DNA from: a virus
Taxonomy: Duplodnaviria > Caudoviricetes
Direction: 5' to 3' (one strand)
DNA length: 64,000 nt
IMG/VR virus record: IMGVR_UViG_3300028833_000101
Coordinates: 32,001 to 96,000 of that record
Shown here one piece after another: positions 32,099 through 55,536 of the stretch. The notes under the pieces are model-generated. The model saw nothing but the letters and a program-made list of their open reading frames with translations, was not told where the DNA came from and searched no databases. Every line of letters begins with the position of its first letter. Position 1 is the stretch's first letter. The translations under genes and the position numbers were made by a program.

Positions 32099-32485
32099 AT
32101 GTTAAGGTGAAAAGATATTCAAGTATATGCAGATGAGGCAATTACGCGCTTTACAAATATGTATAGAAACATTAGCCTTATTGGGGCCGGGCTTGCTCCG
32201 AATAGCCCAGATAAGTATTTAATTTATCTTGATGATAAAAAATTAGCTGGAACCTTTAAAGTAATTATTACTGAAGAATTTTTAAATGGCCAAACACAGA
32301 CAATTGATTTAGCTGCAAAGATTCCAAGTAGTTTTCCAGAAGAGAAAAAAGTTGTATTAAGAATTGCTTATGCTATTTTAGTTGCTTGACAACGACACTT
32401 TATTGAAGCCTATAAACAAGTTGCACCAAATAAGTATGATGTAACTTTTGCTAATGCTAAAAATTGATATGATGGTTTAAAATAA
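32099..32485 (+). CDS. LRxAY-family paralog 1 (code 4)
   Basis: 3 TGA, the first at codon 4. KKVVLRIAYAIL. Confidence 0.75.
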
Positions 32486-32486
32486 T

Positions 32487-32828
32487 ATGGCAAGATATAG
32501 TTTACAAGATGCACGTAGATATATAGTTCAAGCTTTTATGAGACTTAATAAAGCTCGTGGCTTAAATTTAGCTTTACTTGACTTAGAATATGCAGACTTA
32601 ATGGGTTGGGATTTTATTAAAGCTCATATGTATGATAAGACAACACAAACTAAATTTGATAGTATGCTTAATGAATTTATATTTACCAGAGAAGATACTA
32701 TGACAAATTTAGATACACAAGCTAAAATACTTGGAAAAAATCTAAATGAAAGAGAAAGAATTATTTTAAGAGTTGCTTACACTATTTGAAGAGATTGGAA
32801 GGAAACTAGAAATGTTGACGTGGACTAG
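32487..32828 (+). CDS. LRxAY-family paralog 2 (code 4)
   Basis: YIVQAFMRLNKARGLNL...ERIILRVAYTI(W). Extends through TGA 32787 to TAG. Confidence 0.75.
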
Positions 32829-33141
32829 CCAAGACTTAGATGATTTCTGTGAACAAGCCATTAAGCTTTTAAATAAGAAAAAACAATTACAATTAGAATT
32901 AAGAAATTGTTGGCTTTATTCAAATAGCTCTGGCAGTAATTTTCATATTATCTATCATAATAACTTTTTAGATAAAGATTTTCATTTATGTAGAAATGGT
33001 AAAATTTTGCAAGAATTATCACCAGACACCGATAGAGCAGCTGGCTTAAAAGAAGTAGATGATATTAAGTTAAAAATAGTTTTACGTATTGCATATTTTA
33101 TTTATAAAGACTGTCAAAGAGAAATGAAAGAGGATAAATAA
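32812..33141 (+). CDS. LRxAY-family paralog 3
   Basis: FCEQAIKLLNKKKQLQL...KIVLRIAYFIY. ATG 32812 follows GGAAGGA. Confidence 0.75.
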   Translation: MLTWTSQDLDDFCEQAIKLLNKKKQLQLELRNCWLYSNSSGSNFHIIYHNNFLDKDFHLCRNGKILQELSPDTDRAAGLKEVDDIKLKIVLRIAYFIYKDCQREMKEDK

Positions 33142-33668
33142 TGGCTAGAGAAGCATCATTTATGTTTAAAGACCTTGAAGAGCTTGCTCAAATTAAAGCT
33201 GGTGTTTTAAGCTACCTTCAAAGAGATATTGACAAACTATTGAAGACAAAAGACTTAGATGCTGAATTTGTAAATATTGCGACACCTGGAAAATCATGAG
33301 GAAGAACTTGATTACTCTTTAAAGTTTATTATACTAAATTCAAAGATGCAGATGACATGTTAGGAAACTATGAACATGTTTTCTTTGCTTACCCTATTCA
33401 ACAAAACTTATTTACAAGAGATCCCGATTTAATGGACATCTTAGATAGACAAGCTAACATTGCAGGCAGACAAGATAAGTTAAGCGATATTGATTTAGTT
33501 AAAGTTAGAATTCTTTATCATCTATTTTATATTATTAAATGTATTCAAGAAGACAATTTACCTGCAACTATTAAACTTCCTACTAAAAAATATATTGTTG
33601 TTGAATATGCAGATGCTGGAAATTTATTCTATGAGCTAAAAGACCATTTACCTGGAGGCTTTAATTAA
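33141..33668 (+). CDS. LRxAY-family paralog 4 (divergent, code 4)
   Basis: 2 TGA. RDIDKLLKTKDL...LVKVRILYHLFY. Most similar to the 52490 protein. Confidence 0.65.
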
Positions 33669-33669
33669 A

Positions 33670-34014
33670 ATGACAATAACTGAAATTAAAGACCTGTGAC
33701 CAGAATGACGAATTGAATTTGTCTGTGACTATGCTTGTGAAAAACTAAGAAATATTAAAGGTATTAATTTTGTATATCTTAGAAATGAAGGCTGACAAGA
33801 GTGAGTAGATGGGACTGAGTTCTATATACCAATTATTTTTGAGTATAAAACAAATGGTACATTCTTAAAACTTGAAATTCATCAAGATTTATTTGTAGAA
33901 GAATTTTTAGACTTTGATAAAAAAACTGGTGCTAATAGATTACCAGACATTAGAGATAAAGTAATAGTAAGACTTGCTTGACACTTAAAAGAACGTTTTG
34001 AAGGAAGAAGCTAA
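33670..34014 (+). CDS. LRxAY-family paralog 5 (code 4, 5 TGA; absent from the track)
   Basis: VCDYACEKLRNIKGINF...DKVIVRLA(W)HL. Confidence 0.75.
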
Positions 34015-34015
34015 T

Positions 34016-34765
34016 ATGGGATTGCAACTTGGAATAAATGAATCTTCTAATATTATTCTACAAGCTATTAAAGCAACAGGTGAAAACTTTAATAGAGATT
34101 TTCATCATGTCTATTCTACCCCTGGACATCAAGGCTTTTATACTGAAATAGATGATTTTACTTTAGAGATGAAGCTTCATACAATTTCTAAAGACTATAA
34201 CAAAGATGATCATGTTTTTAATTTAAATATTCCATATGAGTATTTTAATGATGATCAACTCCCTGGTGATACTCAGCTTGGAATAAAACTTACAGATCAT
34301 ACTGAAGTAAAAGCTGAAATAAGATGTATGGGTCTAATCGCAAAAACATATGAAGCTTGGATTAAAGACCATGAAGTTTTTACTATAAATGATTTAAGAA
34401 AAATTATTAATGATGCTTTAGATAGACTAAGAAAAATTAAAAAGTTAGATTTAATGGTTCGTGGAGATAAAGGTGAATTAGCTGAAAAGTATATTCAAAT
34501 CTACTTGACAGAAAATCATATTCCAGCAACTGAAGGAAGTGCTCTTGATAGATTTTTTCCAGTTGAATTACATATCTATGACTACTATACTGATGTAGGA
34601 AATCATATAGTTGATGGCTCAATTGGTGAAGCTAATCTTCGTGGAAAAGATAGAAAAGAAATTTGTCTACTAAGAGTTGCATATACTATTTATTCAGAGT
34701 GTATGGGCTGGCTTCATAATAAGTGACCAAAAGTTTATAATAATTATTTAAATGGTAAATTCTAA
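34016..34765 (+). CDS. LRxAY-family paralog 6 (two tandem domains, code 4)
   Basis: IILQAIKA..KAEIRCMG and IINDALDRLRKIKKLDL..ICLLRVAYTIY. TGA at 34724. Confidence 0.72.
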
Positions 34766-35076
34766 TGACTAAAAATGAAAAAGAACAAGTTGTATTAGAG
34801 GCAATTCAACTACTTATAAAAAATAAAGGCCTTAAAATAAAAGTAAATAAGATGTGAGTTGACACTGGCTATTTTAATGTTGAGCTAGAATATACTATTC
34901 ATAATATAACTAAGCTGCAAGACTTTGGTTTTGTTGCTCAATGATTTGATCCAAATTATTTTGAAATATCTTGAGTTAGAGGTTTACAGGTTCCAGCAAA
35001 TGCAACTGATTATCAAAAAGTATTATTAAAACTTGCATATTATTTTTATAAATGATATAAGGAGAAGTGTCAATAA
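34765..35076 (+). CDS. LRxAY-family paralog 7 (code 4, 4 TGA; absent from the track)
   Basis: VVLEAIQLLIKNKGLKI...KVLLKLAYYFY. TAATG coupling at both ends. Confidence 0.75.
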
Positions 35077-35414
35077 TGGATCAAGTAGAAATTGATGGAA
35101 TGCTCCAAGGAGCAAAAGAGTATGATGCCGAAAAATATTTAGCAGAAGCAGCTAAATTACTTTCACGTAATAAAAAATTAAATGTTGAAATAGATGACTG
35201 TGAGTGATACGTTAGTGATATAACTAATCGACTTGTATTAAAAATTTGATATTCAGTTAATAGTCATGATGTATTGCTAAAGGTTGTTGAGTCTCTGTTT
35301 AAAGACTACCAAAGACCTGCTGATGCTGAAATTGGGATTAAACCAGGAATGGAAATGAAACACAAAATTATCCTAAGACTTGCCTATGTATTGTATAAAC
35401 ACAGAGAAGACTAA
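35076..35414 (+). CDS. LRxAY-family paralog 8 (code 4; absent from the track)
   Basis: YLAEAAKLLSRNKKLNV...KIILRLAYVLY. Followed by a terminator at 35405-35429. Confidence 0.75.
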
Positions 35415-35458: not shown

Positions 35459-35989
35459 ATGACTACAACAGAACTAATTGAAAAAGCAGTAGAAAACTTA
35501 AATAGAGTTAAGCAATTAAACCTAAGCATAACAAGCATATTATCGCAACTTGGTAATGATAATAATTTTTCTGTATCAATATTAGATAATGAAAGCGACT
35601 GCACATTTGATACTATTATTGATGAAAATATATCTACTCAACAACTATTGCCAGATGACCATACAAAGCTATCCCCAGATAATATTATAATGTTAAGAAT
35701 AGCTAAGCATATATTTGAAGCATATAAAAAGTTTAAAAACAATGTTGTCAATGCTAGCCTAACACTAAATAATAATCCAACTATTAGTTCAGTAAAAATT
35801 GGTCAAGCTACTTATGACATAGGTGTTAATGGTAGAAGCTTAACTGCAACGTTTGATGAAGTAGATGAGTTAAAAAATAAGCTTGATAATTTACAAATTG
35901 AAAAAGATCACTTAGAACAAGAATTACAGAGCACAAAAGCAATAGTTGATTTACTGTTTCAACGATGTCAAGATAAAGGGATTTTATAA
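35459..35989 (+). CDS. LRxAY-family paralog 9 with C-terminal coiled coil
   Basis: LIEKAVENLNRVKQLNL...IIMLRIAKHIF. Own TTGTATAAT box at 35441. Confidence 0.72.
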   Translation: MTTTELIEKAVENLNRVKQLNLSITSILSQLGNDNNFSVSILDNESDCTFDTIIDENISTQQLLPDDHTKLSPDNIIMLRIAKHIFEAYKKFKNNVVNASLTLNNNPTISSVKIGQATYDIGVNGRSLTATFDEVDELKNKLDNLQIEKDHLEQELQSTKAIVDLLFQRCQDKGIL

Positions 35990-35993
35990 ATAA

Positions 35994-36194
35994 ATGATTG
36001 AACCTTATATTATTTTAACTCTTTGGCTCATTAATCTTGCTGTCAGCAGTTTACTTATATTGTATTTTCAAAAAAATAAACGAAGACCAACTGACTTTTC
36101 TGGCTGGACATTTGGAATTATTATTTGGAATATATTTATTACAATACTGTGTATAGCATTGATGTCATGTTATTTTACTGGGGTGCTTGGTTAG
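35994..36194 (+). CDS. Small two-TM membrane protein
   Basis: Two hydrophobic stretches separated by KNKRR. Confidence 0.7.
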   Translation: MIEPYIILTLWLINLAVSSLLILYFQKNKRRPTDFSGWTFGIIIWNIFITILCIALMSCYFTGVLG

Positions 36195-36467: not shown

Positions 36468-37340
36468 ATGGCAACCAAAGAACAAAAGAAACATGGTTTT
36501 ACGGTTATGTATGAAAAAGATGGCTACTATTGGGGCAGCTATGACCCATGGCCATCTAAGGATGATACTAAGCTTATTAAAGTTGCTGTTTGACGTGGTT
36601 ATCAAGAGCCAGATCCAACTGGAGAAACTGAATATATTGGTATTGTAGGACCACAGGGGCCAAAGGGCGACAAAGGTGACAAAGGTGATACTGGTCCTCG
36701 AGGTCCAAAAGGGGATAAGGGCGATAAAGGTGACCAAGGTGAAATTGGCCCACAAGGTGAACAAGGCGAACCCGGAGAAAATGGCCAAGATGGTGCACAA
36801 GGTCCTAAAGGTGATACCGGTGCTAATGGTATTACTCCTCATATTGGTGATAATGGAAACTGATTTATTGGAGAAACTGATACAGGTGTTCATGCACAAG
36901 GCCCTAAGGGCGAAGATGGAGCGGGTGGTGAAGGCGGAAGCTCACTATCAAGAGAAGAAGTTATTACCATTGTAAACGAAGCGATTGAAAGTGGTGAAAT
37001 TGATCTTAAGAAAGAAGAATACATTGTAGAAGACGTAGATGAATTAGACCTCTTAAGATTGTTTAGAACTGAATATGCAATTAATATTATACCAGTAGAC
37101 CCTGAACTTAATACCGATCGTATTGTGATCGAGCCTAACACTGCTTGAACTGAAGAAACAACAAAAGTGGTTATTAAACCAGCTGATGGTGTTATTGGCA
37201 GCATCAATAGTATTATCTCTGTAGAAAATGCAGATTATGTAGTAATTGATGACCCAGAAGCCCCAGAAGGAGCTTTAGTTATAGTTTTAAATAATCCAAC
37301 TGCTGATGTTAATATTTCAGTAGAAGAAAGCTTTAAATAA
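36468..37340 (+). CDS. Collagen-like (Gly-X-Y) virion protein (code 4; absent from the track in this frame)
   Basis: About 20 GXY triplets and TPHIGDNGN(W)FIGETDTGV. 3 TGA; AGGAGG RBS. Confidence 0.85.
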
Positions 37341-37355
37341 TGGAGGAACTGAATA

Positions 37356-38483
37356 ATGGCAACTGCAAATATTAAAAAATTTGTTACTATTGATAACTTA
37401 AAAACAGTTATTGAAGAATTTAAAAAACATAATAGAACTATTATTGATGTAACAGAACTTCCATTATCTAATATTGACAGCACTAAAATTTATCGTTTAA
37501 TTACAGATGTTCCAGGAAAAACTGAAATTAGTCATGAATATAAATTATTTATAGCTAATATTGTAGATAACCAAAAATCACCTGGTATAGCTGGAATTTT
37601 AGATACTCTTAATCAAAATGGATTTATTGAAAATATAGATTATTTTACATATCCATTAGCAGACGTGCCTGATTATGGTAGTGATTATACTTTATTATAT
37701 ATAGATTATATAAAATTTCAAACCATTAGACAGAAGAGCCAATCATCTACCTTTAAAGCAAATTTTTATGATTTTCATGTTGTTGAAAATGCAGATGAAT
37801 TTGAAGCTTTATATAACACTCTTATAAATAAGCCTTTTGATGAAACACAAGAATATAAAGATTGGCTTAGTGAACAAGGTTTAAATAAATATTGTTATTG
37901 CTATGTTTATATTAAGAATACAGATGGCTTAGAAAATAAAGACTTTATAGATGCAAGTAATTTTGAAGATTTATCGTGGAATAATAATCAAATACCAAAT
38001 TTTTGGGAAATTGATTATTATGCTACTCCAGATGCTGATAATTATACAAATGATGGTGTTTGGTATATTGACGCAGTTGATCCTATAGTTTCTACTACCA
38101 ATATTACAGATTTATTTTCGAGTTTGGTTTCTTCTGATCTATCTAATCTAAAGGATAACCCAGAACTTTATAAGGTAGTAGATTTAGTCACAGAAAATAT
38201 TACTGAACCGGTGCACACAGAAGCTTTATATACACATAATATTACTGGCTGAGAAAAAATTGAAATCGGTGGAACAAGTAGTATAGTTTATGCTACAAAT
38301 GCTGATGTTGACCTTGGCTTTGGAATTCTAACTTTTGCAGATAATATTTCAATTGAAGATACATCTTTAGTAGCAGATGATACAACTACTATTGATGAAG
38401 AAAACCATCTTTTAGATTTAGATGGTGATGAATATAATAATGGAACTAATCCAGAGGATAACTCCGGAGAAGATAAAGAATAA
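37356..38483 (+). CDS. Putative virion accessory protein (code 4)
   Basis: Extends through TGA 38250 (TG-W-EKI) to TAA at 38481. Confidence 0.65.
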
Positions 38484-38509
38484 TGTTAATTTAATTAAAG
38501 GAGAGAAAA

Positions 38510-39430
38510 ATGAGTAATTACATTGACAAAATTAAAAAAGACGGAGTTATCTATAATATCCGTAGTATTGGAGCATATCTTGTTGAGCAAGAACCCGTTG
38601 CAGCTCCAAGTGGAATTAGTGGAAATTTAAACTATGAGCCTGATGAAGAAAAAGGTTATCAAGTATTAGACACCATTTATTCTGCTGGACAAATTAATAC
38701 TATTACTTATGGTAAGGTTGTTTGCCACTTACTAACGCTCGATACAACTTATAATACAGCTTATTATATTAGTGCTTTTGAACCAACTACAGTCATTGTT
38801 CCAGAAGAAAGCGGTGGTGAAGAAGTAGGTGGTGGTGAAGTAGAAAGTGGTGGAGGACTTAAAAAGGCTGCTCTTAAATCCAGCGGCACACTTAACCCAG
38901 GTGATGAAGTAGATGGCGCTGAAGCTATATTAATTGCTTTAATTGGCGGTAAATTTATTACACATCAAATTATTACAGCTGCTTCAGTGCCAAATGATAT
39001 TTTTGTTGATACTTCTAATGAATGGAAACCAGATGAGCTTTTATTAGAAGATAAATATTATAATTACCAAGATTGATTTAGTGCTAATATGGGTGCATAT
39101 TTAGAACGCAAACAAACTGCTTGGGAAGAAGAAAATGGCATTTCCGGCGGCGAACAAGAAGAAAGCGGTGGAAAAAGACGCCCTGATAGACTTCCTGAAA
39201 TTGATGAAAATTTTGAACCAACAATTAAAGACTTGATCTGAGCAAGAACCTTAAGCAGCAATGATGAAAATGGCGGGAATGAATTTATGATAAAAACTGC
39301 TGATATCTTACTTAATAGTTTTGTCCACAACACACAAGCTCGTATATTTTTAACTGGCCTTATGCCAATGTACACTGGAGAAGAACTTGATCCTATCAAG
39401 CCTAATCCAGGAGAAATGCTAGAAGAATAA
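38510..39430 (+). CDS. Putative virion accessory/fibre protein (code 4)
   Basis: Starts YIDKIKKDGVIYNI. 2 TGA; TAA at 39428. Confidence 0.65.
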
Positions 39431-39458
39431 AGCATAAAATAATTGGAGGTAGCTAAAT

Positions 39459-39971
39459 ATGGCTGAAGAAAAGAAAGTCTTAACGACTGAAAATTTAGCT
39501 GCAATTAAAGAGCTTAATGATGCTTGATATCAAGAAAAACTTGAAAGCGGCGTAAATATAAAAACTATTAATGGTATCTCTATTTTAGGAAATGGGGATA
39601 TAGTTATTAAAGCAAGTGACGGTGGCGATGCTAGTGTTGAACTTTTAGCTACTGCTTGAAGAAAAAATAATTGATATGATTGCAATACTCTTGTAACATA
39701 TAATAAAAAAATTTATCGCTGTGTAAACTCTAACTCAGATTCAAGCTTTAATACTCGTAACTGAGAACAAACAACTATTGCAGATGGTATTTTAGATATA
39801 ATGTATAATCAAAATTATGTTAACTGAAGTGATGCCTATAATGCTGCAAATAGCTGCTTAAATGATAATTTTGCTTCTAAATTTGATACAAGATTAAATA
39901 GTCAATTTAATGATAAATTTGATGCAAGATTTGATGCTAAAATGGATGAATTGCTAAATACGGAGATGTAA
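39459..39971 (+). CDS. Fibre-associated protein with CBM5/12-like module (code 4, 5 TGA; absent from the track)
   Basis: QEKLESGVNIKTINGISILGNGDI and A(W)RKNN(W)Y..VTYNKKIYRC..N(W)E. Confidence 0.7.
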
Positions 39972-39975
39972 TATT

Positions 39976-42507
39976 ATGGCCAGTAGTAAATATAATATAG
40001 CTACATTATTTCATGATATTGCAGATAGTATTAGAGATAAGCTTGAGTACCCAAAAGAAGCTTATACTATAAAACCAAAAGAGTTTGCAGATGAAATTTT
40101 AAATTTACCTCAAACTATTACTGGTGGTGCGACATATGCTGACCCTGCATTATTAGTAGAGGGAACTATTACAGACATAACTAATGATGCTGCATATATT
40201 AAACCTTATACTTTTGCTTATTGTTCAAATCTTACTAGTGCTGAATTTCCAAAATGTTCAAAAATTGGCTCTAATACTTTTTTACAGGCTGTTAATTTAA
40301 ATTCTATCAGTTTTCCAGTTGTTGAACAAATTGAGCCTTGGGCATTTAGTAGCTGTGCTGGTTTAGTTACAGTTAGTTTTCCAGAATGTATTAGAATTAA
40401 TACAGGAGCATTTTGTAATTGCTCCTCTTTGCAATCTGTTACTTTGAGTAAATGCTCTTATATTGGTGATCGTGCTTTTTATAGTAATAATGAGTTAATA
40501 AGCTTAAATTTAGAACAGGTTGAATATATTGGGCCTTCAGCTTTTCAATATTGTACTAAACTTTCTAATATTTCACTGCCAAATGTCACTTCTATTGGAA
40601 TGTATGCTTTTAATGGAACCGCTACTGATAGTCTATTTAGAAACTTATCACTATCAAAATGTAGAAGAATTGAAAGTTATGCATTTGCAAATGGCTTTGA
40701 TACTATTTCATTACCAGAGTGTACTTATATTGGTTCACAAAATTATGGAGGCGGGTCAAACTATACCTATAGTTTAAGCTACTTAGAACTTCCAAAAGCT
40801 CGTATGTTAGATAGAGTTTTTTGTAACTACTGGAATTTACAGGCGGTTAGTTTACCAGAAGTAACTATATTAGCGGCAACGTTTTCAAACTGTCGTTATT
40901 TAAGCAATGTATATGCACCAAAAGTTACTTCAATTTACTCTGATACTTTTAACAGCTGCTATTCATTGTCATCCGCTGTGTTTTCTAAAGTTACGTATCT
41001 AGGCAGTGAAGCTTTTGCTAATTGTTCAAATCTTAGTACAATATCTTTTGGTAAATTAACTACCATTTGTTCATTTGCTTTTTATGGTTGCTCCAAATTA
41101 ACAGATATAAATTGTGGCTATGGGACAAATGTATTACCAGTAACTACAATTTCAGATGGAGCATTTAATCGTTGCTCTATGTTGCCAAGCATAACATTTT
41201 TATATTGCAGTAATTTTAGTTCTGTAAATATTTTTAGTGACTGCTCTAATTTAACAACGTTAATCTTTTTACCAAGTAGTGCTACTTTTTCTAGTAAATT
41301 TAATCTGCCAGCAATACAAAGTATTTATGTTAGGTCAAGTTATATTAGTGTATGAAAAAATACTAAAAATTTATCTCATTACTCTAACATTATTCAATCT
41401 TTGCCAGCAGATATTGAATCATTATATACATTTGAGAAAGAATTTTATAGTTCAAATATATCTGAAATACCATTATCAAAAATAAATACTAAATATATAT
41501 TAAGTAGTGCTTTTTGGCGTTGCCAAAATTTAAGCACTGCTTTATTGCCAGAGGCAGTAATTATAGATGGCTCTGCATTTTATTCATGTAAAAATTTAGT
41601 TGAAGTCTCATTACCAAATGCTATTAAATTAGGCAATTATTGCTTTTACTCTGATAATAAAATTTCAAATATCTATTTACCAAACTTAATATCAGCTGGT
41701 GCTTATTGTTTTACCTCTTGTACTGCATTTTCAAAGATGAGCTGTATTGACTTACCAAATGTTATTGAACTTGGTGCACAATGTTTCGCATGACTTAACA
41801 TATCTAAAATTTTTGTTCCTAAATTACAAACTGCCGGTCCGGGATGTTTTTCTGTTAATAGATGACTACAAACTATAGATTTACCAAATTGTACAACACT
41901 TGGTGAAAGTTGTTTCTGAGCATGTGAACAATTAAGTAGTATAAATATTCCATTAATAACAAGTATTCCAAAAGGAGCTTTTTATGCTTGTTATAGTTTA
42001 TCTGCTATTCCTAATAACTCTACACTTACTGCTATTGGTTCAGACGCTTTTGCAAACTGTCATAATTTACAAGGTGATATATTTTTGCCAAAAGCTAGTA
42101 TTATTGGTTCAAACGCTTTTTATGGACTTATGAATTCAAATATAAATAAAATAATTTTAGGAAATGTAAGTATAGGAACAAATGCCTTTACATCAATTTA
42201 TAATCTCTCTGCTGTGCATCTTGCTGGTGGTACTATTAGTTGTTATGCATTTAGAAGCTGTAGAACAATACCAAGTATTTATTTTTATAGTTCTAAGTTA
42301 ATTTCTATGGAATTAGCAAATCGATCCCCAGTAGTCCTATTTGGTGGTACTGATATTGGAACGATATATGTAAGACAATCATTGTTTAATAATTATTTAA
42401 AAGATTCAAATTGAAAATATTATTCAAGTCATTTTAGTAGTCTTACAGATGAAGAAATGAATATATTATATCAAGAAAATTATGGATTACCCTATAATCA
42501 AGATTAA
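39976..42507 (+). CDS. BspA-type leucine-rich repeat (LRR_5) protein 1 (843 aa, code 4)
   Basis: IGxxAFxxCxxL repeats and IYVR..N(W) caps. 5 TGA. Confidence 0.88.
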
Positions 42508-46508: not shown

Positions 46509-46527
46509 ATAAATAAAGGATTAAAAT

Positions 46528-47001: not shown

Positions 47002-47080
47002 GATAATTAAATAAAGAAACTTGTAAAAACTATTTACAAGTTTCTTTTTTTGTGGTATAATATAAATGTGAGGTAAAAGT

Positions 47081-47518: not shown

Positions 47519-47555
47519 GTATTTACAGACAAAAATATTTAGAAAGTAGATTAAT

Positions 47556-47819
47556 ATGAAAATTGAAATAGAAGTTAAATTTAATATTGATGATAAGGTG
47601 TTAGTTAAAAAGCCGCATAGTGGAAGCTATCAAAAACCAGAACCATTTATTGCAGTAATTGGTGGCTATACAATTACTAAAAATAAAAGATCAACTACAG
47701 TTAGATATACCCTGGAGCCACTTATTAATGATGGTTATTATCATTTTAATGCTGGTATCTCTGACTGGAACCGTAAAAAGAAATATAGTGTCAATGAATT
47801 AGAAAAAATTGAGGAATAA
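47556..47819 (+). CDS. Small SH3/KOW-like hypothetical protein
   Basis: KFNIDDKVLV...ELEK. Confidence 0.7.
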   Translation: MKIEIEVKFNIDDKVLVKKPHSGSYQKPEPFIAVIGGYTITKNKRSTTVRYTLEPLINDGYYHFNAGISDWNRKKKYSVNELEKIEE

Positions 47820-47822
47820 ATT

Positions 47823-48194
47823 ATGAAACATTTGCATAGAGAAGTTATTGGCTATACTGTTATCATTTTAGATAAATATATTTTATGTGGAACTGCTAAT
47901 AATTTACAATGGAAAGATTTAGAAAATTTAGGAAGAGTTAATATTAGGCACTATAAAAGTTTAAAAATTTTACTAAATAATTTATGGTATCATATGACTG
48001 ATTATGGTAGCAACAATTTTAAGTCTATACTAGATGCTGAGTTATCTAAAGCAGGATATTTAAGATACACAGGCTATTATGAAGTTACAGATTATCGTAA
48101 AAAAGAAGCACTTAATTATCTTATTGATGCCGGCTTACTTAAAGTTGTAGAATTACAAGAAAGTATTGACATTGAAAAAGAAGTTAAATTTTAA
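47823..48194 (+). CDS. Hypothetical early protein (paralog of 47081)
   Basis: DKYILC, IRHYKSLKIL. Confidence 0.75.
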   Translation: MKHLHREVIGYTVIILDKYILCGTANNLQWKDLENLGRVNIRHYKSLKILLNNLWYHMTDYGSNNFKSILDAELSKAGYLRYTGYYEVTDYRKKEALNYLIDAGLLKVVELQESIDIEKEVKF

Positions 48195-48252
48195 TAAAGC
48201 TATTTACAAATAAAGTAGTTTATGTTATAATAATAATGCGAGGTAAATTAAA

Positions 48253-48771
48253 ATGGAAATTAAACAAATTGATTGGTCAAGAATTAAACCTAGAATTGGC
48301 AGATGGGTAAGAACAGAAGCCCATGCTGGTCAAGTTAAATACGATTTAGAATCAGACTTAGCTGACCCTTATACTATTACACAATTTACAGTTGACTTTG
48401 AAGATGAAACTGTTTCTACTGGCTGGAGAGAAGAACTTAGTGGACATCAAGAAGAAGTACCATTAACTCCAGAAGAAAACTACGAAGCCAGACAAATGAT
48501 TTCTGATTGCAGAATTATTACTGTTAGCTTTACTATTAGACCAGGGTATGAAGACCTCGCTAAAAGACAATCTGAATATATGCTTGATGGCTATGATCTT
48601 ATTAAAGTTACTATGCAGGGCAATACTATTACATTTGAAGGCAATCATCTAAACTTAAGTGATGCTGTAGCTGATGGTCATATTTCAGAATGGGCTAATG
48701 AAGACCCTGAAGTAGAGATTGATGTTGCCTGTGGTATTGATAGAGCTAACGCAGGAAACTGGGATTATTAA
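48253..48771 (+). CDS. Hypothetical acidic early protein
   Basis: Intact ORF with its own promoter and GAGGT RBS. Confidence 0.75.
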   Translation: MEIKQIDWSRIKPRIGRWVRTEAHAGQVKYDLESDLADPYTITQFTVDFEDETVSTGWREELSGHQEEVPLTPEENYEARQMISDCRIITVSFTIRPGYEDLAKRQSEYMLDGYDLIKVTMQGNTITFEGNHLNLSDAVADGHISEWANEDPEVEIDVACGIDRANAGNWDY

Positions 48772-48836
48772 AAAAACTATTTACAAATAAAAATATTTGT
48801 GATATAATATATTTAGAAAGTTGAAGTAAATAAAAT

Positions 48837-49055
48837 ATGAAAAAAATTATTATTGTTTTGGCGAATGACTGCCTTCAAAGAGTCTACTCTGATGAAAAGG
48901 TCGAAATAGAAGTCATTGATCTTGGAGATGTAGATGAAGAGCACCCAACAAGAGTTCAAAAGAAGCAGCTTAAACAACTAGAAAAATTAGAAGAAGACGC
49001 TAGTTTAACTACCAAGTGTTGGTTCTATGATAACAAACCACTTTCTTATAAATAA
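48837..49055 (+). CDS. Hypothetical early protein (similar to 63307)
   Basis: Pattern IIIVL..CLQRVYSD..IEVIDL. Confidence 0.7.
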   Translation: MKKIIIVLANDCLQRVYSDEKVEIEVIDLGDVDEEHPTRVQKKQLKQLEKLEEDASLTTKCWFYDNKPLSYK

Positions 49056-49070
49056 CGCGAGGAAATAATT

Positions 49071-49736
49071 ATGGAAAAAGAATATCAAAAAATTGGAAAT
49101 GTATTTAAGTTCGACGAAAAGTTTAGAACTATTGTTGGGCTTAATGAACCATATGAAACATTAAAGAATATTATCTGGCAAGGTACTGAAAAGATTGACG
49201 GAACTAATATTCGTGTTCATTGGGATGGTCATGACATTGAGTTCGCTGGCCACACTGATAAAGCACAAATCCCACCAAAGCTTCAAGCTTATTTAGAGTC
49301 CGTGTTCAAAGTCCCAGAAATGGAATATATTTTTGAACAAGTCTTTGGTGAACCTGAAGCGTATATCTTTGGTGAAGGTTTTGGTGCTGGAATTCAAAAG
49401 TCTGGCGGAGACTATGTAGAAAACGGAACCGATGTTTCTTTCATTGTCTTTGATGTTCAAATCGATGGTTGGGACCTTGATAGAAAGAACACTACTGATG
49501 TTGCTACTAAACTTGGTTTACCTTCTGTCCCTGTCTGCTTTGAAGGAACTCTTGATGAAGCTAAAGCTTATGTTGCTGAACATCACATGTCTACACTTAA
49601 TGGTGGCAAGCATGAAATGGAAGGCTTGGTCTTAGTGCCTCGTGATATTCAACTCTATGACAAGAAACACCATCTTATTAAGTGCAAGTGCAAATACAGA
49701 GACATGGTTAGAGCTGGTCTTGTAGAGGAAAAATAG
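49071..49736 (+). CDS. RNA ligase (Rnl2-like nucleotidyltransferase domain)
   Basis: Motif I TEKIDGTN, FGEGFG, FIVFDV, EGLVL, KCK. Confidence 0.88.
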   Translation: MEKEYQKIGNVFKFDEKFRTIVGLNEPYETLKNIIWQGTEKIDGTNIRVHWDGHDIEFAGHTDKAQIPPKLQAYLESVFKVPEMEYIFEQVFGEPEAYIFGEGFGAGIQKSGGDYVENGTDVSFIVFDVQIDGWDLDRKNTTDVATKLGLPSVPVCFEGTLDEAKAYVAEHHMSTLNGGKHEMEGLVLVPRDIQLYDKKHHLIKCKCKYRDMVRAGLVEEK

Positions 49737-49738
49737 CT

Positions 49739-49867
49739 ATGATAGTTGGAATTATTGCAACTATACTTTTGTTTCTCTTAATTTCTGGTTGTATTATTAT
49801 TGGCTTTGCCGATGCTTGTGGAGAAGCAGCTGGTGAAGAAAGTATTTATTCTGGTGGCAAAGAATAA
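49739..49867 (+). CDS. Small membrane peptide (42 aa; absent from the track)
   Basis: MIVGIIATILLFLLISGCIIIG, directly after the ligase gene. Confidence 0.55.
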   Translation: MIVGIIATILLFLLISGCIIIGFADACGEAAGEESIYSGGKE

Positions 49868-49947
49868 AAAACTTTAAGAAATTTGTAAAAAAGTATTTAC
49901 AAGTTTCTTTTTTTATGTTATAATAATTATAGAAAGTTGGTAAGCTT

Positions 49948-50703
49948 ATGAATAAAGAAACATTTGAAACTATTAAAACAAATCTTGAAGCACGAGTAAA
50001 TGAATGTAAAGCACATTTAGACCATATCATCACAACTGATGATTTAAAAACTATTACAGTAGGTGAAGCACAAGAATTAAAAGCTTGGGCAAGTAAAGAA
50101 AGTGCTATTATGACTGAAATAGTTATGGTCGATTTTTATCATATCATTGGTATGGGTGAATTAACAGTTTTACAAACTAATACTTTTATAAAACTTATTA
50201 AAGAATACATGAGTTATCGCTCAGACCTTAAAACTATTGGTGCTCATTTCTCATTAGACAACTTACCAAATCTTCCAAGTATCAGTGAGTTTACATTAAA
50301 GCAACTTGGTAATATTACGCTCACTTCTAAAGTCCGTGGTAGAAATAAAGCTGCCTCTACTTTTATTGAAACAAATACAGTAGGTGACTATGCTAAAGCT
50401 TGCCAAGACCTTGCTAGTAGTATTACTGCTGATGGAGAATGTGGACCATTCAAAATTGAAGACAATACTATTACTTTACCAACTACTTCATTAAATGATT
50501 TTATTAAAGCTATTAATCCAAATCTTAGCCGAGGCAAAATTACTTCAGCTGCTTCTTATCAAAATAATACTGGAAAAGATTATGCTGATATTTTTTGGCA
50601 ATATACAAATGAAGAACATAATGAAATTAAAGCTGTTGTCTCACGAAAGAATGGATACTTTACTGGAATTAAAAATAAATTAAAAAATATTTTTGTAAAA
50701 TAA
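49948..50703 (+). CDS. Hypothetical early protein
   Basis: Intact 251 aa ORF behind an early promoter. Confidence 0.75.
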   Translation: MNKETFETIKTNLEARVNECKAHLDHIITTDDLKTITVGEAQELKAWASKESAIMTEIVMVDFYHIIGMGELTVLQTNTFIKLIKEYMSYRSDLKTIGAHFSLDNLPNLPSISEFTLKQLGNITLTSKVRGRNKAASTFIETNTVGDYAKACQDLASSITADGECGPFKIEDNTITLPTTSLNDFIKAINPNLSRGKITSAASYQNNTGKDYADIFWQYTNEEHNEIKAVVSRKNGYFTGIKNKLKNIFVK

Positions 50704-50762
50704 TTAATAATTGTTTACAAATATAATTTTATATGAGATAATATTAATGTGAGGTAAAAAAT

Positions 50763-51023
50763 ATGACTGTAAAAGAATACTTAGAAGTTCATAGTAGTAA
50801 AGATATTGAATCAATCGGTATTTATTCAGCTACTAAAATTAAGGATGCTTGTGATAGAGATACTGATGTTATTGATACTGATGTTCAACCTGTTGATTTA
50901 GTTAAATATTTAGAAAGAGAAGTTGACCATGTTAGCTTAGGTATCTTTGATGAAACAAGAAAAGCTATTGATGGAACAGACTACAATGCCAAGTTCATTA
51001 GAGCTTGTATTTATGTGAGGTAA
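50763..51023 (+). CDS. Hypothetical early protein
   Basis: MTVKEYL start, with promoter and GAGGT RBS. Confidence 0.75.
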   Translation: MTVKEYLEVHSSKDIESIGIYSATKIKDACDRDTDVIDTDVQPVDLVKYLEREVDHVSLGIFDETRKAIDGTDYNAKFIRACIYVR

Positions 51024-51028
51024 TAATT

Positions 51029-51517
51029 ATGTTTCCAGATTTATTAGATGCTCTTAGTGAATATAGTAGTTATTATACTAGTGATGTTGATCCAGAAGTT
51101 GAAGATGCTTTTAAAAGTATTCTTAAAAAAGTTTGGCATGAACACGCCACGAAATATATAGATAATACTGGAGATATTACTGGAGAAGCTCGTTCAATCT
51201 TAGAAAAAGCTTTACAATTACTTCACAAAAATAAAAACATTCATCTCAGATTCGATTTGAACTCTGAGAAGTGTAAAATGTATCAAATACAAGACCCAAG
51301 AAAGTTAAGCCCACAAACAATTTTACAATTAGAAGTAAAAGAAGGCTTAGATAAACAGTATATCAAAGCTACTATTAGTAATGAAGCTTTCACCGCTAAT
51401 TGGTTACCAACTGATGACTATGCTGGTATTTCAAAAAGAATTAAAGATTTAGATACCATAACTTATCGTGGTATTAGACTTGCTTATATTATTTATCAAG
51501 CAATTAAAGATAATTAG
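51029..51517 (+). CDS. LRxAY-family paralog 10 (early, TGG only)
   Basis: ILEKALQLLHKNKNIHL...YRGIRLAYIIY. Confidence 0.75.
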   Translation: MFPDLLDALSEYSSYYTSDVDPEVEDAFKSILKKVWHEHATKYIDNTGDITGEARSILEKALQLLHKNKNIHLRFDLNSEKCKMYQIQDPRKLSPQTILQLEVKEGLDKQYIKATISNEAFTANWLPTDDYAGISKRIKDLDTITYRGIRLAYIIYQAIKDN

Positions 51518-51521
51518 GAGT

Positions 51522-51860
51522 ATGAATATGTATAAAGTAAAATGTATCGCTGATGGAATGATTGTCTGGAAGGGCACTACTGTCATAGGAATTAAAGGTT
51601 TGACTTTGCCTGAGATGTTTAATGAATGTGATTGTGTAAAACTTCCAGGAAACGCTTTCGATTATTCACTTTCACCCTCTAATAAATATACAGAAGAACA
51701 ACTTGCTTTTATTAATAAAGCAGAAGCTGAGTGGGCTGAAGATGGTGGTGAAGAAATCGATCATGAGCCTGAGTATGGAATTAAGTATGGCGAAGATGAT
51801 GACGTCCCACTAATGGATTTATTTGGCCAAAGCATTCCAGACGATGACTTGCCGTTTTAG
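51522..51860 (+). CDS. Hypothetical protein with SSB-like acidic tail (DDDLPF)
   Basis: AGGAG precedes ATG 51522/51528. C-terminus IPDDDLPF. Confidence 0.65.
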   Translation: MNMYKVKCIADGMIVWKGTTVIGIKGLTLPEMFNECDCVKLPGNAFDYSLSPSNKYTEEQLAFINKAEAEWAEDGGEEIDHEPEYGIKYGEDDDVPLMDLFGQSIPDDDLPF

Positions 51861-51877
51861 CTTCAAAAGGTGAGAGA

Positions 51878-52105
51878 ATGAAAATAACAACTAATGAACA
51901 ACCTTTAATCATAGACTTAGAAAAAAATGAAACATTAACTATATCAAGTACAATAGTAATGATAAAGCATGTTTTTGATTTATCTTTGTACAAAACCGTC
52001 AGACTAAAAGTTTACAATAATATATTTATAGTTGAAGCTGAGAACAAAAATAATGGCAGTAAATTAATCAGGGCTTTTTCTGATACTTGGGGGTTTTCTA
52101 TTTAA
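51878..52105 (+). CDS. Hypothetical protein
   Basis: Intact ORF with AGGTG RBS. Confidence 0.6.
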   Translation: MKITTNEQPLIIDLEKNETLTISSTIVMIKHVFDLSLYKTVRLKVYNNIFIVEAENKNNGSKLIRAFSDTWGFSI

Positions 52106-52305
52106 TGAAAAATAAAGAAATAGTAAAAGCATTAAAGGGAAGTTGGAAAGACAAACCAGTAGAAGTTCTCGTTAAAATTGAGGGCGGACTATACTATCCA
52201 ATTAAAGAAATAGTCAAAAACAAGGATGGTACTTTTACTATTATAGGCAGAAACTTAACTGAGCATTCCGTCATAGGGCCTGCCAAATGGTATAAGAATA
52301 AATAG
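52105..52305 (+). CDS. Hypothetical protein
   Basis: TAATG-coupled to the previous gene. Confidence 0.6.
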   Translation: MKNKEIVKALKGSWKDKPVEVLVKIEGGLYYPIKEIVKNKDGTFTIIGRNLTEHSVIGPAKWYKNK

Positions 52306-52472
52306 AGCTTCTGCCAAAATACACTCATAGTAGGACAAAAAGTTTAAGACTTCTGTCAAAAGCAGAAGTTTTTTATTTCTTTGTTTGTAAATCTTTGTCA
52401 CTTTTGTCACTCAAATGTCACTCAAATAAAAGACTTGACAAAAAGTTGAAATTCAATTTTTTGGCAAATAAT

Positions 52473-52483
52473 TTGCTAAATTA
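52473..52483 (+). promoter_or_regulatory. Putative late promoter TTGCTAAATTA
   Basis: Head of the second paralog array. Confidence 0.75.
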
Positions 52484-52489
52484 TACAGA

Positions 52490-52918
52490 ATGAACAAAGA
52501 TTACAACCAAGAAAGATTTGACTTATTAGAAACTTTGAAGACAGATGTTGCCAGAATGATCAGACTTAAAGACCTGCCGGCAACCTGCCATTCTTTAACT
52601 GCAATTAGTGGAAGAGATGGTAGAACGGAGCTAGTATTGGAACTATTCGTCGACATATTAAATACAGAGAAAATCGCCCGAGTTTACTTATACATTACAG
52701 AGGACATTTTTGACCCAGATGGCTTTGAGTTTATAAATAGTGACATAGGTCTTGGAAATAAAAAAGTAGACACAAAAACCTTCATTAAACTTAGAGCCCT
52801 CAGAACAGTATACAATGTAATAAAAAACGTAAGCACTGGATATGCAAATGCAGTCGACCCAAATAAAATAATATATGTCAGAACACAAAAAACAGGTGTC
52901 TGTGATTATAGGAATTAA
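52490..52918 (+). CDS. LRxAY-family paralog 11 (divergent, near-leaderless)
   Basis: TDVARMIRLKDL...TFIKLRALRTVY. Confidence 0.68.
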   Translation: MNKDYNQERFDLLETLKTDVARMIRLKDLPATCHSLTAISGRDGRTELVLELFVDILNTEKIARVYLYITEDIFDPDGFEFINSDIGLGNKKVDTKTFIKLRALRTVYNVIKNVSTGYANAVDPNKIIYVRTQKTGVCDYRN

Positions 52919-52922
52919 TAGT

Positions 52923-53303
52923 ATGAGTTACCCATATAGACCACAAAAAGAATGAGACATAATAAATATAGTCAAGAAAGCAATCAGGACCTTAAATAAG
53001 AAAAAAGGGACTACTTTAAAGATGGCCAATATTAGCTTTGGTCAAGGTGTGGACAGCAAGTATGGTTCAGGACAATTAGATACCACAATAAGTTTAGTAG
53101 TGCAGGAAACAATAAGTAAAAGAATAATGAAGCTATTCTGATATGAAAGCTTCTTTAATCCTGACTTGCCTGATGATAAAGACGAAGTTTCAGGAGTAAA
53201 TAAAGTAAGTAATCCAGGAGACAAAGTATTGCTTAGAGTTGCTTACTGCATTTGGTTTGGCAGACACTGGATGTCAGCGCCACAAAAGAAAAATAAAAAA
53301 TAA
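52923..53303 (+). CDS. LRxAY-family paralog 12 (code 4; absent from the track)
   Basis: IVKKAIRTLNKKKGTTL...KVLLRVAYCIW. 2 TGA. Confidence 0.75.
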
Positions 53304-53313
53304 TGGTGATAAT

Positions 53314-53679
53314 ATGGAAATAAATAGTAAATATTCTACACTTATTACTTCAGCTTGTGAAAGGGTACAAAGAGTTAAAGGAATTAATGTTTTTCTTTCT
53401 AGTATAGAATTTTATGGTGTTCATAAATACTCGCATGACAATGTATATAAGATAAATCTTATAACCGATAATGGACTCCTTACTATCTATCAAGAAGAAG
53501 AAAACTTTAAGTATTGGGCTGATGTCCCATGGTCTGGCTTGGAAGAGTTTAGACCAGCAGACTTTGATAGCTGATCAGAATATAAGAAGTTAATGCTTGC
53601 TTGGTGCTGGGCAATTTATAAATACTGTAAAGACTGGGGAGACTACCAAAATACAACGCCACCACCAATTGAAGAATAA
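53314..53679 (+). CDS. LRxAY-family paralog 13 (divergent, code 4)
   Basis: LITSACERVQRVKGINV...KKLMLAWCWAIY. TGA at 53572. Confidence 0.65.
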
Positions 53680-53743
53680 ATTAAAAGGTATCTTAGAGAT
53701 ATCTTTTTTATAACTCTTAAAAAATAATCTGCTAAATTATACT

Positions 53744-53870
53744 GAGAAAAAGCTAAGGCAATTGCTATTGGCTTCTTTTTTAATAATTTAATAAAAAACA
53801 TTTGCTATAATTAATTGAAGGTTGTTAAAAAGGCCGAAATAGGTTTTTGGTCAAATATCCTTCTTTTTTT
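53744..53870 (+). ncRNA. Two putative late-promoter mini hairpin RNAs (53744-53781 and 53817-53870)
   Basis: CTGCTAAATTA at 53729 and TTGCTATAATTA at 53802 are each followed by a hairpin and T run, with no ORF. Confidence 0.45.
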
Positions 53871-53899
53871 ATACTCTTTTGCGCCGTATAATATAATGT

Positions 53900-54325
53900 A
53901 TGAATTTTAATATTATAGACCAAGCAATAAAATTAGTAAGAGATAAATTCAAGATAGATTTTACAGTCAGCCAGTATACAATACAGACGGACCCAGAAGA
54001 CATAACAATTGGCGGAGTTGCCCATCACATCTATAGAGAGCCAGAGCTTAGGATGAGTATCACTGTAGTAAAAGGTCGTAATTCTTGGACCAGCTATACA
54101 GACTTAGATTATGTGATATTCGGAAGCGACCTACGAGATGGAAGCTTGATAGATGAAATCATCGGTGGAAATATCAAAGGTTATGAATTAGACATGAGAC
54201 AAGCTCTGAGACTCGCCTTCATCATATATAATGGAATCCAGTATGGCGTAAGCGGAGAGATGAAAAAAGATTATATAGACAAAGGCTGGCATCCAAGAGT
54301 AGTAAGTTCAAGAATGAGGTATTAA
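53900..54325 (+). CDS. LRxAY-family paralog 14 (leaderless)
   Basis: IIDQAIKLVRDKFKIDF...QALRLAFIIY. TATAAT lies 7 nt before ATG. Confidence 0.72.
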   Translation: MNFNIIDQAIKLVRDKFKIDFTVSQYTIQTDPEDITIGGVAHHIYREPELRMSITVVKGRNSWTSYTDLDYVIFGSDLRDGSLIDEIIGGNIKGYELDMRQALRLAFIIYNGIQYGVSGEMKKDYIDKGWHPRVVSSRMRY

Positions 54326-54381
54326 AAAATATCTCATTTTTTTATTTACTTTTAAAGGCAACTATGGTATAATATAAATGT

Positions 54382-55536
54382 ATGAGTAAGATTATCGGAA
54401 CTTGTTTAGGAGAATATGTAAAAGAGGGAGATGTTTTATATGACCCTCAAACAGATACATATAAGATAAAGGCCGGAGATAGACTAGTGGAAATTGATGG
54501 CCACGTTTTGCAATCTGAAAGTCTAAGAACTTTACAGGAAGCCTTAAGCAATGTAGACGACGAAAACATTAAGATAGATATGTTAGGTAGTTGGGCTAAA
54601 GACCTCGACGCAAAATATAGAAGAACTTACTTAGGCGACTGGGGACCGGACAGAACAGATGAAGCTAAGACAGCAGTAGAGGCAGCGGCTGAGGCAGAAG
54701 CAGAGGCGAGAGCGAAAGCAAGGTTCGCAGAGGCGAGAGCGAGGATGTCAGAAGCGAAAGCAATGAGTAGCAAAACAGCGGCTGCGGCAGGTCCTGCAGG
54801 AGCGCCTTTTGACAGTCAGAGCTTCGACCCCTTGCGTGCGCGCGTTGAAGCCGAAACAGACTCTGGAGCCTGGAAGATAGATGGCCTCGGAGCCCGCATC
54901 AGACCAGTGGACACCGGAGACTGGAACGTCCGCTTCACCGATAAAGCCGCTGAGAAGCTTAGGGAGAACAGCGTCTACGGTAGTGGCGTCGGAACGGCAA
55001 GCCACACCTCCGCGCCCTGGGACGATCCTCTAAAGGACCAGATAGACAAAGCTAGTAATACTGTAGCTTGCTGCGACTTACCTGAACTAAAGCCTGACTA
55101 TAATCCTAATGATAAGGTGAAAGTATATTACCATGATAGATTTCCTTCTATACCTATTCGTTCTATAATAGATGACGCGATTGAATTACTAAATAATAAG
55201 AAAAATTTACATATATCTAAAATTTCTTTACACAATGAAAAATTCAGCGACAAAGACTATAGACTTGCGATATCCTCTAGAATTCCCGAAAGACCAGGAT
55301 ATATAAAGACTTTAGAAGTAGCAATTAATCATACGGCGTTCGACAGAGCCTACAAGACAGAGCTGGACGGATATGCCAAACTTAAAGCCAGACTTGATAC
55401 AAATACTTATATTAAACTTAGAATTGCTTTCTTACTATACCAGGCCTTGAAGCTGCGAGATGAAGACGCCAGAAAGATAAGCTTGGACATCTTTAGAATT
55501 ATAGGCAGCGATACAAGACCAGGATTTCACTTTTAA
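54382..55536 (+). CDS. LRxAY-family paralog 15 with long N-terminal extension and GC-rich Ala-rich linker
   Basis: C-terminal IIDDAIELLNNKKNLHI...YIKLRIAFLLY. Early promoter at 54345. Confidence 0.75.
   Translation: MSKIIGTCLGEYVKEGDVLYDPQTDTYKIKAGDRLVEIDGHVLQSESLRTLQEALSNVDDENIKIDMLGSWAKDLDAKYRRTYLGDWGPDRTDEAKTAVEAAAEAEAEARAKARFAEARARMSEAKAMSSKTAAAAGPAGAPFDSQSFDPLRARVEAETDSGAWKIDGLGARIRPVDTGDWNVRFTDKAAEKLRENSVYGSGVGTASHTSAPWDDPLKDQIDKASNTVACCDLPELKPDYNPNDKVKVYYHDRFPSIPIRSIIDDAIELLNNKKNLHISKISLHNEKFSDKDYRLAISSRIPERPGYIKTLEVAINHTAFDRAYKTELDGYAKLKARLDTNTYIKLRIAFLLYQALKLRDEDARKISLDIFRIIGSDTRPGFHF

Follow-up and report, generated by a model that had tools for sequence, protein, structure and literature searches.

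Paralog family B of the phage SPN3US consists of 20 tandem paralogs, all of which have been detected in the head, and the phage phiKZ has two (PMC5694885). Paralogous proteins with binding or immunity roles also stand in tandem arrays in the SUKH superfamily (PMC3113570) and in polyimmunity loci (PMC3482391), and viral recruits are among them. A further tandem family is found in a 64,000-nucleotide (nt) stretch of viral DNA, referred to here as the window, which covers positions 32,001 to 96,000 of the IMG/VR record IMGVR_UViG_3300028833_000101 (Duplodnaviria, Caudoviricetes). In this window, 15 genes with 16 domains are located in two arrays on the + strand between positions 32099 and 55536 (each gene is named below by its first position). 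Together they form a multigene family that is new and restricted to one lineage, its units being small (~105 amino acids, aa) non-enzymatic alpha/beta modules.

Like SPN3US family B and the inner-head families of phiKZ, the locus belongs to a large myovirus and consists of tandem paralogs of unknown function within or beside late genes. Copy number is plastic in both cases, ranging from 2 to 20 in SPN3US-type phages and from 10 to at least 20 in the phages considered here. However, family B members are ~275–500 aa long as opposed to the ~105-aa domains of the window, they were found in virions by mass spectrometry whereas a place in the particle is a prediction for the present family, and part of the present family, unlike family B, has early-type promoters. 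The SUKH and polyimmunity arrays, as well as the multigene families of large DNA viruses, likewise comprise tandem, co-directional copies of small non-enzymatic alpha+beta proteins, and diversified surfaces, variable copy number and presence in viral genomes are further traits which the window family has in common with the SUKH and polyimmunity arrays. In contrast, SUKH and polyimmunity genes are constitutive or early, while most copies here are late-gated.

A preliminary description of this DNA had grouped the 15 genes and 16 domains into one family, an assignment on which leave-one-out tests and a broader profile agree. Read in genetic code 4, where TGA encodes tryptophan, all 15 starts lead into open frames of 103–384 aa, which sum to ~2,300 codons or ~7 kb of the 64-kb window. 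The window has 614 code-4 frames, and the hidden Markov model (HMM) searches covered every one of these together with three shuffled decoy sets. An iterative search seeded from 32812 alone converged at 12 domains with zero decoys, and these 12 were recovered in leave-one-out tests at E-values of 7e-18 to 1.4e-3, the best decoys scoring 0.06–1.4. Four domains (33141, 52490, 53900 and the N-terminal half of 34016) scored at the borderline of this narrow 12-domain profile or escaped it. The broader profile was built from 147 metagenomic domains and the 12, leaving out the four divergent domains, and ranks these four right behind the 12 and above every decoy (best 0.22), with E-values of 1.8e-6 for 33141, 8.9e-5 for 52490, 1.9e-3 for 53900 and 7.3e-3 for the N-terminal half of 34016. 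Single-sequence hhalign comparisons of the four divergent domains yield weak but collinear alignments. The motifs noted initially correspond to family-conserved columns, namely an N-terminal A..lL.k.K.l helix, a D..[AG]G[IL] loop and a C-terminal K.xLRxAYxIY helix. No additional copies of the family were found in the rest of the 104.7-kb parent record.

The alpha-beta-beta-beta-alpha order read from the sequences recurs in the structural models of 32812 and of both halves of 34016. The AlphaFold2 model of 32812, for which the alignment contained the 12 paralogs only, reached a predicted local distance difference test (pLDDT) score of 91.8 and a predicted template-modelling score (pTM) of 0.85; it comprises a helix (residues 6–24), three strands (28–38, 41–50, and 55–62), two short helices and a final helix (85–108). 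The model of the tandem gene 34016, based on 18 orthologs (pLDDT 87.1), shows two helix-strand-strand-strand-helix units. Because these units repeat the element order of 32812, the expectation of one fold for all holds as far as tested, a single confident fold being predicted for the modelled members (32812 and the tandem domains of 34016). Conserved across the family are the end of helix 1 (A16, L20, K24, and L26), a D-x-x-A-G loop (D74, A77/G78) and the LRxAY segment of the last helix (I89, L91, R92, A94, and Y95). The sheet and loops differ among paralogs yet are conserved inside each orthologous group, and the 32812 orthogroup, for instance, keeps the beta1-beta2 hairpin CWLFSNSSGSN-LHI. 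This conservation pattern is that expected for a common scaffold bearing predicted paralog-specific binding surfaces, a scaffold with diversified surfaces having been proposed in the preliminary description.

Profile and structure searches found no characterised family to which these proteins belong, as the first reading of the sequence had suggested. Scans of all members against Pfam, PHROGs, NCBIfam, and PADLOC returned isolated marginal matches only, none of them common to two or more members, and revealed no enzyme or known-domain signature. Among PDB sequences, nothing scored under E 0.38 with the family profile and nothing was found with the profile of the 54382 orthogroup. Foldseek searches with both models against PDB and BFVD gave no match at E ≤0.001, and in the ESM Atlas 32812 matched unnamed viral clusters only (scores ≤0.80), while 54382 matched nothing.

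A profile search across 1.84 billion representative proteins identified 151 clusters at E ≤0.001, 26 of them at ≤1e-10, and nearly all window paralogs have their own orthologs, at 35–95% identity. None of the metagenomic homolog clusters is named or carries a Pfam domain. For the tandem gene 34016 alone, 173 homolog clusters were found; a tblastn search of 50,697 deposited phage genomes gave no match to it. Scans of IMG/VR with single proteins and ortholog alignments found two loci only. Orthologs are also carried by contigs of 165–168 kb (P0294, P0336). The readable contigs of the relatives likewise require TGA to be read as Trp, and the family occurs exclusively in TGA-recoded phages of ruminant guts that are related to each other.

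Copy number and gene content vary among these phages. The IMG/VR relative G001 (99.8 kb) has 10 profile matches and lacks 33670 and 34765; its orthologs are 44–98% identical to the window copies, as opposed to 91–100% for adjacent core genes. L018 (37 kb, ~60% identity) contains 11 domains and misses six orthogroups. The more distant L020 (19.4 kb) contains at least 20 domains at E <1e-3, or 25 with weak ones included; they form a single co-directional array of ~15 kb (505–15647) without interruption, which is bounded by the orthologs of 31166 (158 aa) and 49948 (251 aa). Since the L020 array lies between these two orthologs, the two arrays of the window, which are separated by an adhesin operon and some enzyme genes, represent halves of one ancestral locus. 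The family locus always comes after the last virion-block genes, which encode proteins of 950 and 158 aa, and all copies stem from a single locus where the virion block meets the replication block.

Purifying selection acts on every copy: ratios of nonsynonymous to synonymous divergence (dN/dS) are 0.02–0.59 with a median of ~0.2, compared to 0.02–0.09 for the neighbouring enzymes. In a quick maximum-likelihood tree, window and L018 copies correspond one-to-one in 10 strongly supported pairs, the N-terminal domain of the tandem gene is common even to L020, and the L020 copies are placed deep and are partly clustered by lineage. The region around the locus is itself variable: the operon encoding a collagen fibre, a CBM protein and large phrog_35892 proteins, together with a GT2 glycosyltransferase gene (36468–46433), has no counterpart in G001 (L005–L007), and the RNA ligase, the deoxyribosyltransferase and 51029 are ordered differently in G001 and in the window. 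The missing operon and the altered gene order thus mark the virion/replication junction as a hotspot of insertion and rearrangement.

Two sequence motifs divide the family into classes. The motif TGCTAAATTW is present 11 times in the window, compared to an expectation of 2.0, with 10 sites on the + strand (at 156, 1115, 3497, 16738, 27509, 31990, 32072, 36412, 52474, and 53730), and precedes the sheath gene, other structural genes and TGA-containing units. Within the family it lies 18 nt upstream of 32099, 7 nt upstream of 52490 and ~160 nt upstream of 53900. The site in front of 32099, the first gene of array 1, is the late-type motif TGCTAAATTA (32072..32081, + strand), whose placement is identical in G001, L018, and L020. 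The second motif, TTTACW-N17-TATAAT, has 15 matches against 0.29 expected; 14 are on the + strand, all within 46480–62951, and these front TGA-free genes including 54382. From their position and enrichment we infer that both motifs act as promoters, and both class assignments recur in G001, L018, L020, and further loci. Furthermore, 35459, 53900, and 54382 lack a Shine-Dalgarno sequence and start 9–10 nt past a TATAAT box, a layout suggestive of early transcripts without a leader.

Codon use follows the same division. TGA accounts for 18 of the 24 Trp codons of array 1, the strongest TGA bias of the window, compared to 71 of 145 in structural genes (Fisher p 0.026), while the right-hand block is nearly devoid of TGA except for 52923 and 53314. 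Based on motif class and TGA use, 11 members are therefore late-type (the eight coupled genes, 52490, 52923, and 53314) and four are early-type (35459, 51029, 53900, and 54382). Nine of the 11 late-type genes contain in-frame TGA; the four early-type genes contain none. The initial proposal of a late, TGA-gated operon consequently applies to array 1 and to 52490–53314, but not to the early-type four with their sigma70-like promoters and lack of TGA. RNA-library contigs covering array 1 derive from a ~90% identical strain and may reflect DNA carry-over, and were not counted as proof of transcription.

In array 1, the eight genes from 32099 to 35076 are spaced by −17 to +1 nt, in agreement with the translational coupling proposed for them. 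Four genes had been described as invisible in the standard bacterial code (code 11), and indeed 33670, 34765, 35076, and 52923 have no code-11 open reading frame of at least 50 aa. The array opens with 32099..32485 (128 aa, three in-frame TGA; leave-one-out E 1.3e-4), which is ~44–50% identical to its G001 ortholog with a dN/dS of 0.59, followed by 32487..32828 (113 aa, one TGA; E 7e-11), which is 98% identical to its ortholog with a dN/dS of 0.02. The modelled reference copy is 32812..33141 (109 aa; E 7e-18). Next to it lies the divergent member 33141..33668 (175 aa, two TGA), for which hhalign aligned 89 collinear columns (P 3e-4) and which is 90% identical in G001. The accessory member 33670..34014 (114 aa; E 7e-6), in which TGA makes up five of five Trp codons, has no copy in G001 or L018. 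At this spot, a contig from an RNA library (metatranscriptome run X7) joins 33672 to 34187 via 168 unrelated letters; as it lacks the 33670 sequence, a circulating strain carries something else there.

The tandem two-domain member 34016..34765 (249 aa; C-terminal domain E 1e-8) exists in tandem form in L018 and L020 too. It is followed by a second accessory member, 34765..35076 (103 aa; E 5.5e-6), in which all four Trp codons are TGA and which is missing from G001 and found in L018. The last of the eight coupled genes, 35076..35414 (112 aa, two TGA; E 4e-10), is 50% identical to its counterpart in G001, and the synonymous divergence (dS) of 1.86 between the two suggests an exchanged allele. 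The adjacent gene 35459..35989 is preceded, 10 nt 5' of the ATG, by a TGTATAAT box of its own and encodes a family domain (aa 1–98; E 7e-7) with a C-terminal coiled coil, aa 130–165 giving weak Pfam matches of coiled-coil type. Array 1 ends with a holin-like gene that is not a family member (35994..36194, + strand), the product of which has 66 aa, two hydrophobic segments around a basic loop and weak matches to BatA/DUF4131 transmembrane-type models.

Array 2 starts with 51029..51517, a TGA-free gene for a 162-aa protein with the family domain at its C-terminus (leave-one-out E 9e-8), which lies within a sigma70-type unit with promoters at 49896 and 50714. The divergent member 52490..52918 (142 aa) has a GCTAAATTA motif just upstream (52474–52483), as do its orthologs in G001 and L018. 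It is followed by 52923..53303 (126 aa, two TGA; E 1.7e-10) and 53314..53679 (121 aa, one TGA; E 1.4e-3, or 3.4e-12 with the broad profile). The divergent, TGA-free member 53900..54325 (141 aa) has its TATAAT box 9 nt before the ATG and pairs with an L018 copy at 100% SH-aLRT support. The early-branch member 54382..55536 (384 aa; E 5e-10) consists of a variable N-terminus and a family domain at aa 255–362. Its promoter is located at 54345–54373, and its orthologs in G001, L018, L008, L015, and L017 have a sigma70-like promoter ahead as well; ~25 ortholog clusters of 200–506 aa are known. The N-terminal part of this orthogroup ranges from ~100 to 380 aa among relatives, and in the window it includes an alanine-rich, G+C-rich low-complexity segment at aa ~100–150 (AEAEARAKARFAEARAR...AAAAGPAGAP; 54700–55000), which lifts the local G+C content to 41% compared to 31% for the genome.

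Tentatively, at a probability of roughly one in three, the late copies would serve as binding modules, either travelling in or on the virion or helping to assemble it. They would be made together with the particle, given the late-type motif common to them and to the sheath and structural genes, and the in-frame TGA codons would add a second gate. Each late copy would have its own partner, the final targets being either phage parts or host proteins encountered at the next infection. The closest analogy would be the tandem head and ejection paralog families of giant myoviruses such as SPN3US family B. The confident single fold, the lack of enzyme signatures, the conserved scaffold with orthogroup-specific surfaces, one-to-one orthologs, purifying selection, the late motif, TGA richness, coupling, the holin-like operon end, the position after the virion block and the plastic copy number are all consistent with such a role.

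Several observations weigh against it. In the searches, neither sequence nor fold tied the family to known structural, chaperone or ejection proteins, and the family profile found nothing at E ≤1 in a six-frame translation of the whole SPN3US record (gp138–154 included), a comparison which remote homology could escape. The members share no common N-terminal capsid-targeting or protease-site motif, the domain beginning at residue 1–10, and the four early-type members stand outside the late programme. Furthermore, G001, itself a fragment, keeps most paralogs at high identity yet lacks the adhesin operon 36468–45405; the paralogs are therefore not paired one-to-one with the fibres of that operon, and this pairing was dropped. 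Finally, the plastic junction, the presence/absence variation and the mosaic divergence would suit accessory host-interaction genes equally well.

Such genes are at the center of the main rival reading, slightly less probable than the first, in which the family is a cytoplasmic panel for counter-defence or host takeover. Each paralog would be soluble, act outside the virion and neutralise a different host protein in the infected cell, be it a defence sensor, a toxin or a housekeeping protein, in a manner akin to immunity-type arrays, for which the tandem binding and immunity arrays with their viral recruits provide a precedent (PMC3113570; PMC3482391). Small non-enzymatic proteins with one scaffold and diversified surfaces fit this picture, as does a repertoire that differs among close relatives, with 33670 and 34765 absent from G001 and six orthogroups from L018. 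Divergence is mosaic, selection is looser than on enzymes, some of the copies in L020 arose by lineage-specific duplication, the locus occupies a plastic junction region and an early-promoter branch exists. However, most copies carry the late motif and are richer in TGA than structural genes, and their synthesis must therefore await the code switch. This strict late gating of most copies disagrees with the early action of classical anti-defence proteins. In addition, every dN/dS lies below 1 and orthogroups are stable over 40% divergence. No anti-defence or defence model is matched consistently (a single PADLOC model was matched by one member, at E 0.003), no SUKH/SMI1_KNR4 or other immunity-family match was obtained from Pfam or NCBIfam, and general library scans of the neighbouring genes revealed no toxin domain or toxin gene alongside. 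If packaged copies hit host targets at the next infection, counter-defence and a virion role would merge.

The preliminary description further drew attention to RNA elements beside both arrays, and a non-coding element is indeed located just upstream of array 1 and a structured-RNA region downstream of array 2. The former is a conserved small RNA (sRNA) candidate of ~200 nt at 31865..32057 (about 31850–32060, + strand), with a TGTATAAT box, two hairpins exposing CCUCC, AUCCUCCC and UUCCUCCU motifs that are likewise exposed, and a strong terminator. The whole gap containing it has a folding z-score of −2.7. The candidate is ~94% identical in G001 (L006 1346–1554) and 80% in L018 (9065–9259), surpassing the flanking proteins in conservation, and its second unit, which has a GCTAAATTA motif of its own, also sits inside the L020 array (14035–14103). 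The sRNA neighbourhood is thus found beside family genes in four phages, a recurrent adjacency which may also be what plain synteny in one locus would give. Homology between this sRNA and the RNA downstream of array 2 was considered and rejected, the promoter box alone being common to both. A 1.4-kb non-coding stretch following 54382 contains, by eye, repeated short units (55600–55830 and 56320–56940), such as CGAAAT...GTTTTC-type units and GCCCCGTTTT, which adjoin the structured RNA, as well as long AT-rich palindromes, e.g., at 56469–56510.

These elements bear on an improbable third reading, in which the proteins are RNA or ribosome binders resembling double-stranded RNA-binding domains (dsRBDs) or HPF, work with the neighbouring anti-Shine-Dalgarno sRNAs in translation control and are possibly tied to the TGA code switch. 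Of the preliminary label “dsRBD-like,” the order of elements has held up; size, profile, contact motifs and charge have not. The dsRBD (PF00035) has the same alpha-beta-beta-beta-alpha order, and a tandem-domain member exists here as well. However, the dsRBD comprises ~65–70 aa as opposed to ~105 aa, its strands and helices are much shorter, and it lacks the two extra short helices found here between beta3 and the last helix. RNA contacts of dsRBDs are made by a GPxH motif in the beta1-beta2 loop and a KKxAK motif at the start of the last helix. Neither occurs in the family consensus, where the beta1-beta2 loop is paralog-variable. Pfam dsrm has zero matches among the 15 proteins at E ≤1, and dsRBDs of the PDB are likewise missing from the family-profile matches up to E 10.

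On the structural side, dsRBDs recur in the top, insignificant Foldseek rows of both models. The model of 32812 retrieved the NF90 and ADAR2 dsRBDs at E 0.09–0.26 (TMq 0.25–0.28; 50 columns; root-mean-square deviation ~5 Å), and the tandem model is led by TARBP2, Loqs, R2D2, and DGCR8 at E ≥0.03 and a TM-score of ~0.14; dsRBDs are absent from the VIA top 50. HPF/YfiA/RaiA proteins, two-layer alpha/beta sandwiches of comparable size, align over 80–85 residues with the top TM-score of the PDB rows (0.44) and no sequence signal. Nevertheless, HPF has a beta-alpha-beta-beta-beta-alpha order and a four-stranded sheet, whereas the model starts with helix 6–24 and has three strands, the additional first strand of HPF being missing. 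As modelled, the likeness to dsRBDs and HPF is that of a generic alpha-beta3-alpha two-layer arrangement and no more, because the top dsRBD scores over both models only reach E 0.03–0.4 and TM-scores of 0.14–0.28.

The conserved basic residues K24, K88, and R92, which flank the helices, and the RNAs beside both arrays would accord with RNA binding. Conversely, the isoelectric points of the domains range between 4.6 and 9.8, with acidic values for 38% of the 159 domains, so that there is no uniform basic character; 52923 is an example of a basic copy and 35459 of an acidic one. In addition, the sRNA and array 1 are transcribed as separate units, and the sRNA of L020 is placed elsewhere. Slightly less probable again is a specific form of this proposal, in which the family constitutes the protein arm of translation control. 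LRxAY modules would bind anti-Shine-Dalgarno sRNAs or, like HPF, the ribosome and aid the switch from standard-code early to TGA-reading late translation, separate paralogs serving separate messages or ribosome states.

The least likely proposal, that the proteins are soluble modulators of the operon-end holin-like protein or of other late events and time lysis, draws on the coupled operon closing with a 66-aa, two-transmembrane holin-like gene and on the TGA bias of array 1, the heaviest recoding in recoded phages having been linked to lysis cassettes (bioRxiv 10.1101/2021.08.26.457843), but library scans recognised no endolysin or spanin nearby and no comparable membrane gene in array 2 or the L020 array, the Trp codons of the holin-like gene are all TGG, and ten to more than 20 diversified regulators for a single lysis event are hard to explain.

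The remainder of the window is that of a large recoded phage. Its G+C content is 31%, the + strand holds nearly all genes and many frames are open only when TGA is read as Trp. CheckV estimates the completeness of the parent record at 46%, and the source DNA was detected in gut samples of sheep, goat, and bovine. In TGA-recoded large gut phages, the alternative code serves late structural and lysis genes (bioRxiv 10.1101/2021.08.26.457843), a profile which the window phage fits. Library scans place a tail sheath gene at 1189–2787, baseplate/fibre-like proteins at 24033–27107, a collagen-like fibre at 36468–37340 and two large phrog_35892 proteins at 39976–45405. The assignment of the 950-aa protein (27552–30404) as a tail fibre was dropped, its PHROG matches having no assigned function. 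Enzymes of the window include the GT2 glycosyltransferase, the nucleoside deoxyribosyltransferase, the RNA ligase and an SNF2 helicase which is nearest to helicases of Bacillota phages (30–37% identity). No tRNAs are present in the window, and no Rfam family reaches its gathering score there.

Phages rarely carry expanded tandem gene families. Where they do, as in giant myoviruses with their head and ejection paralogs, such families flag poorly understood virion biology or host-virus conflict. The family described here is new, its fold is confidently predicted and apparently unclassified, and plastic tandem paralog families in giant phages have precedents. Its copies divide cleanly by promoter class and by codon regime (TGA-gated or TGA-free), and the family thus offers a convenient handle on how stop-codon recoding schedules expression. 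The family fills ~7 kb of the window and reaches 15 kb in a relative, and identification of the partners would give function to a sizeable part of the dark matter carried by jumbo phages of ruminant guts.

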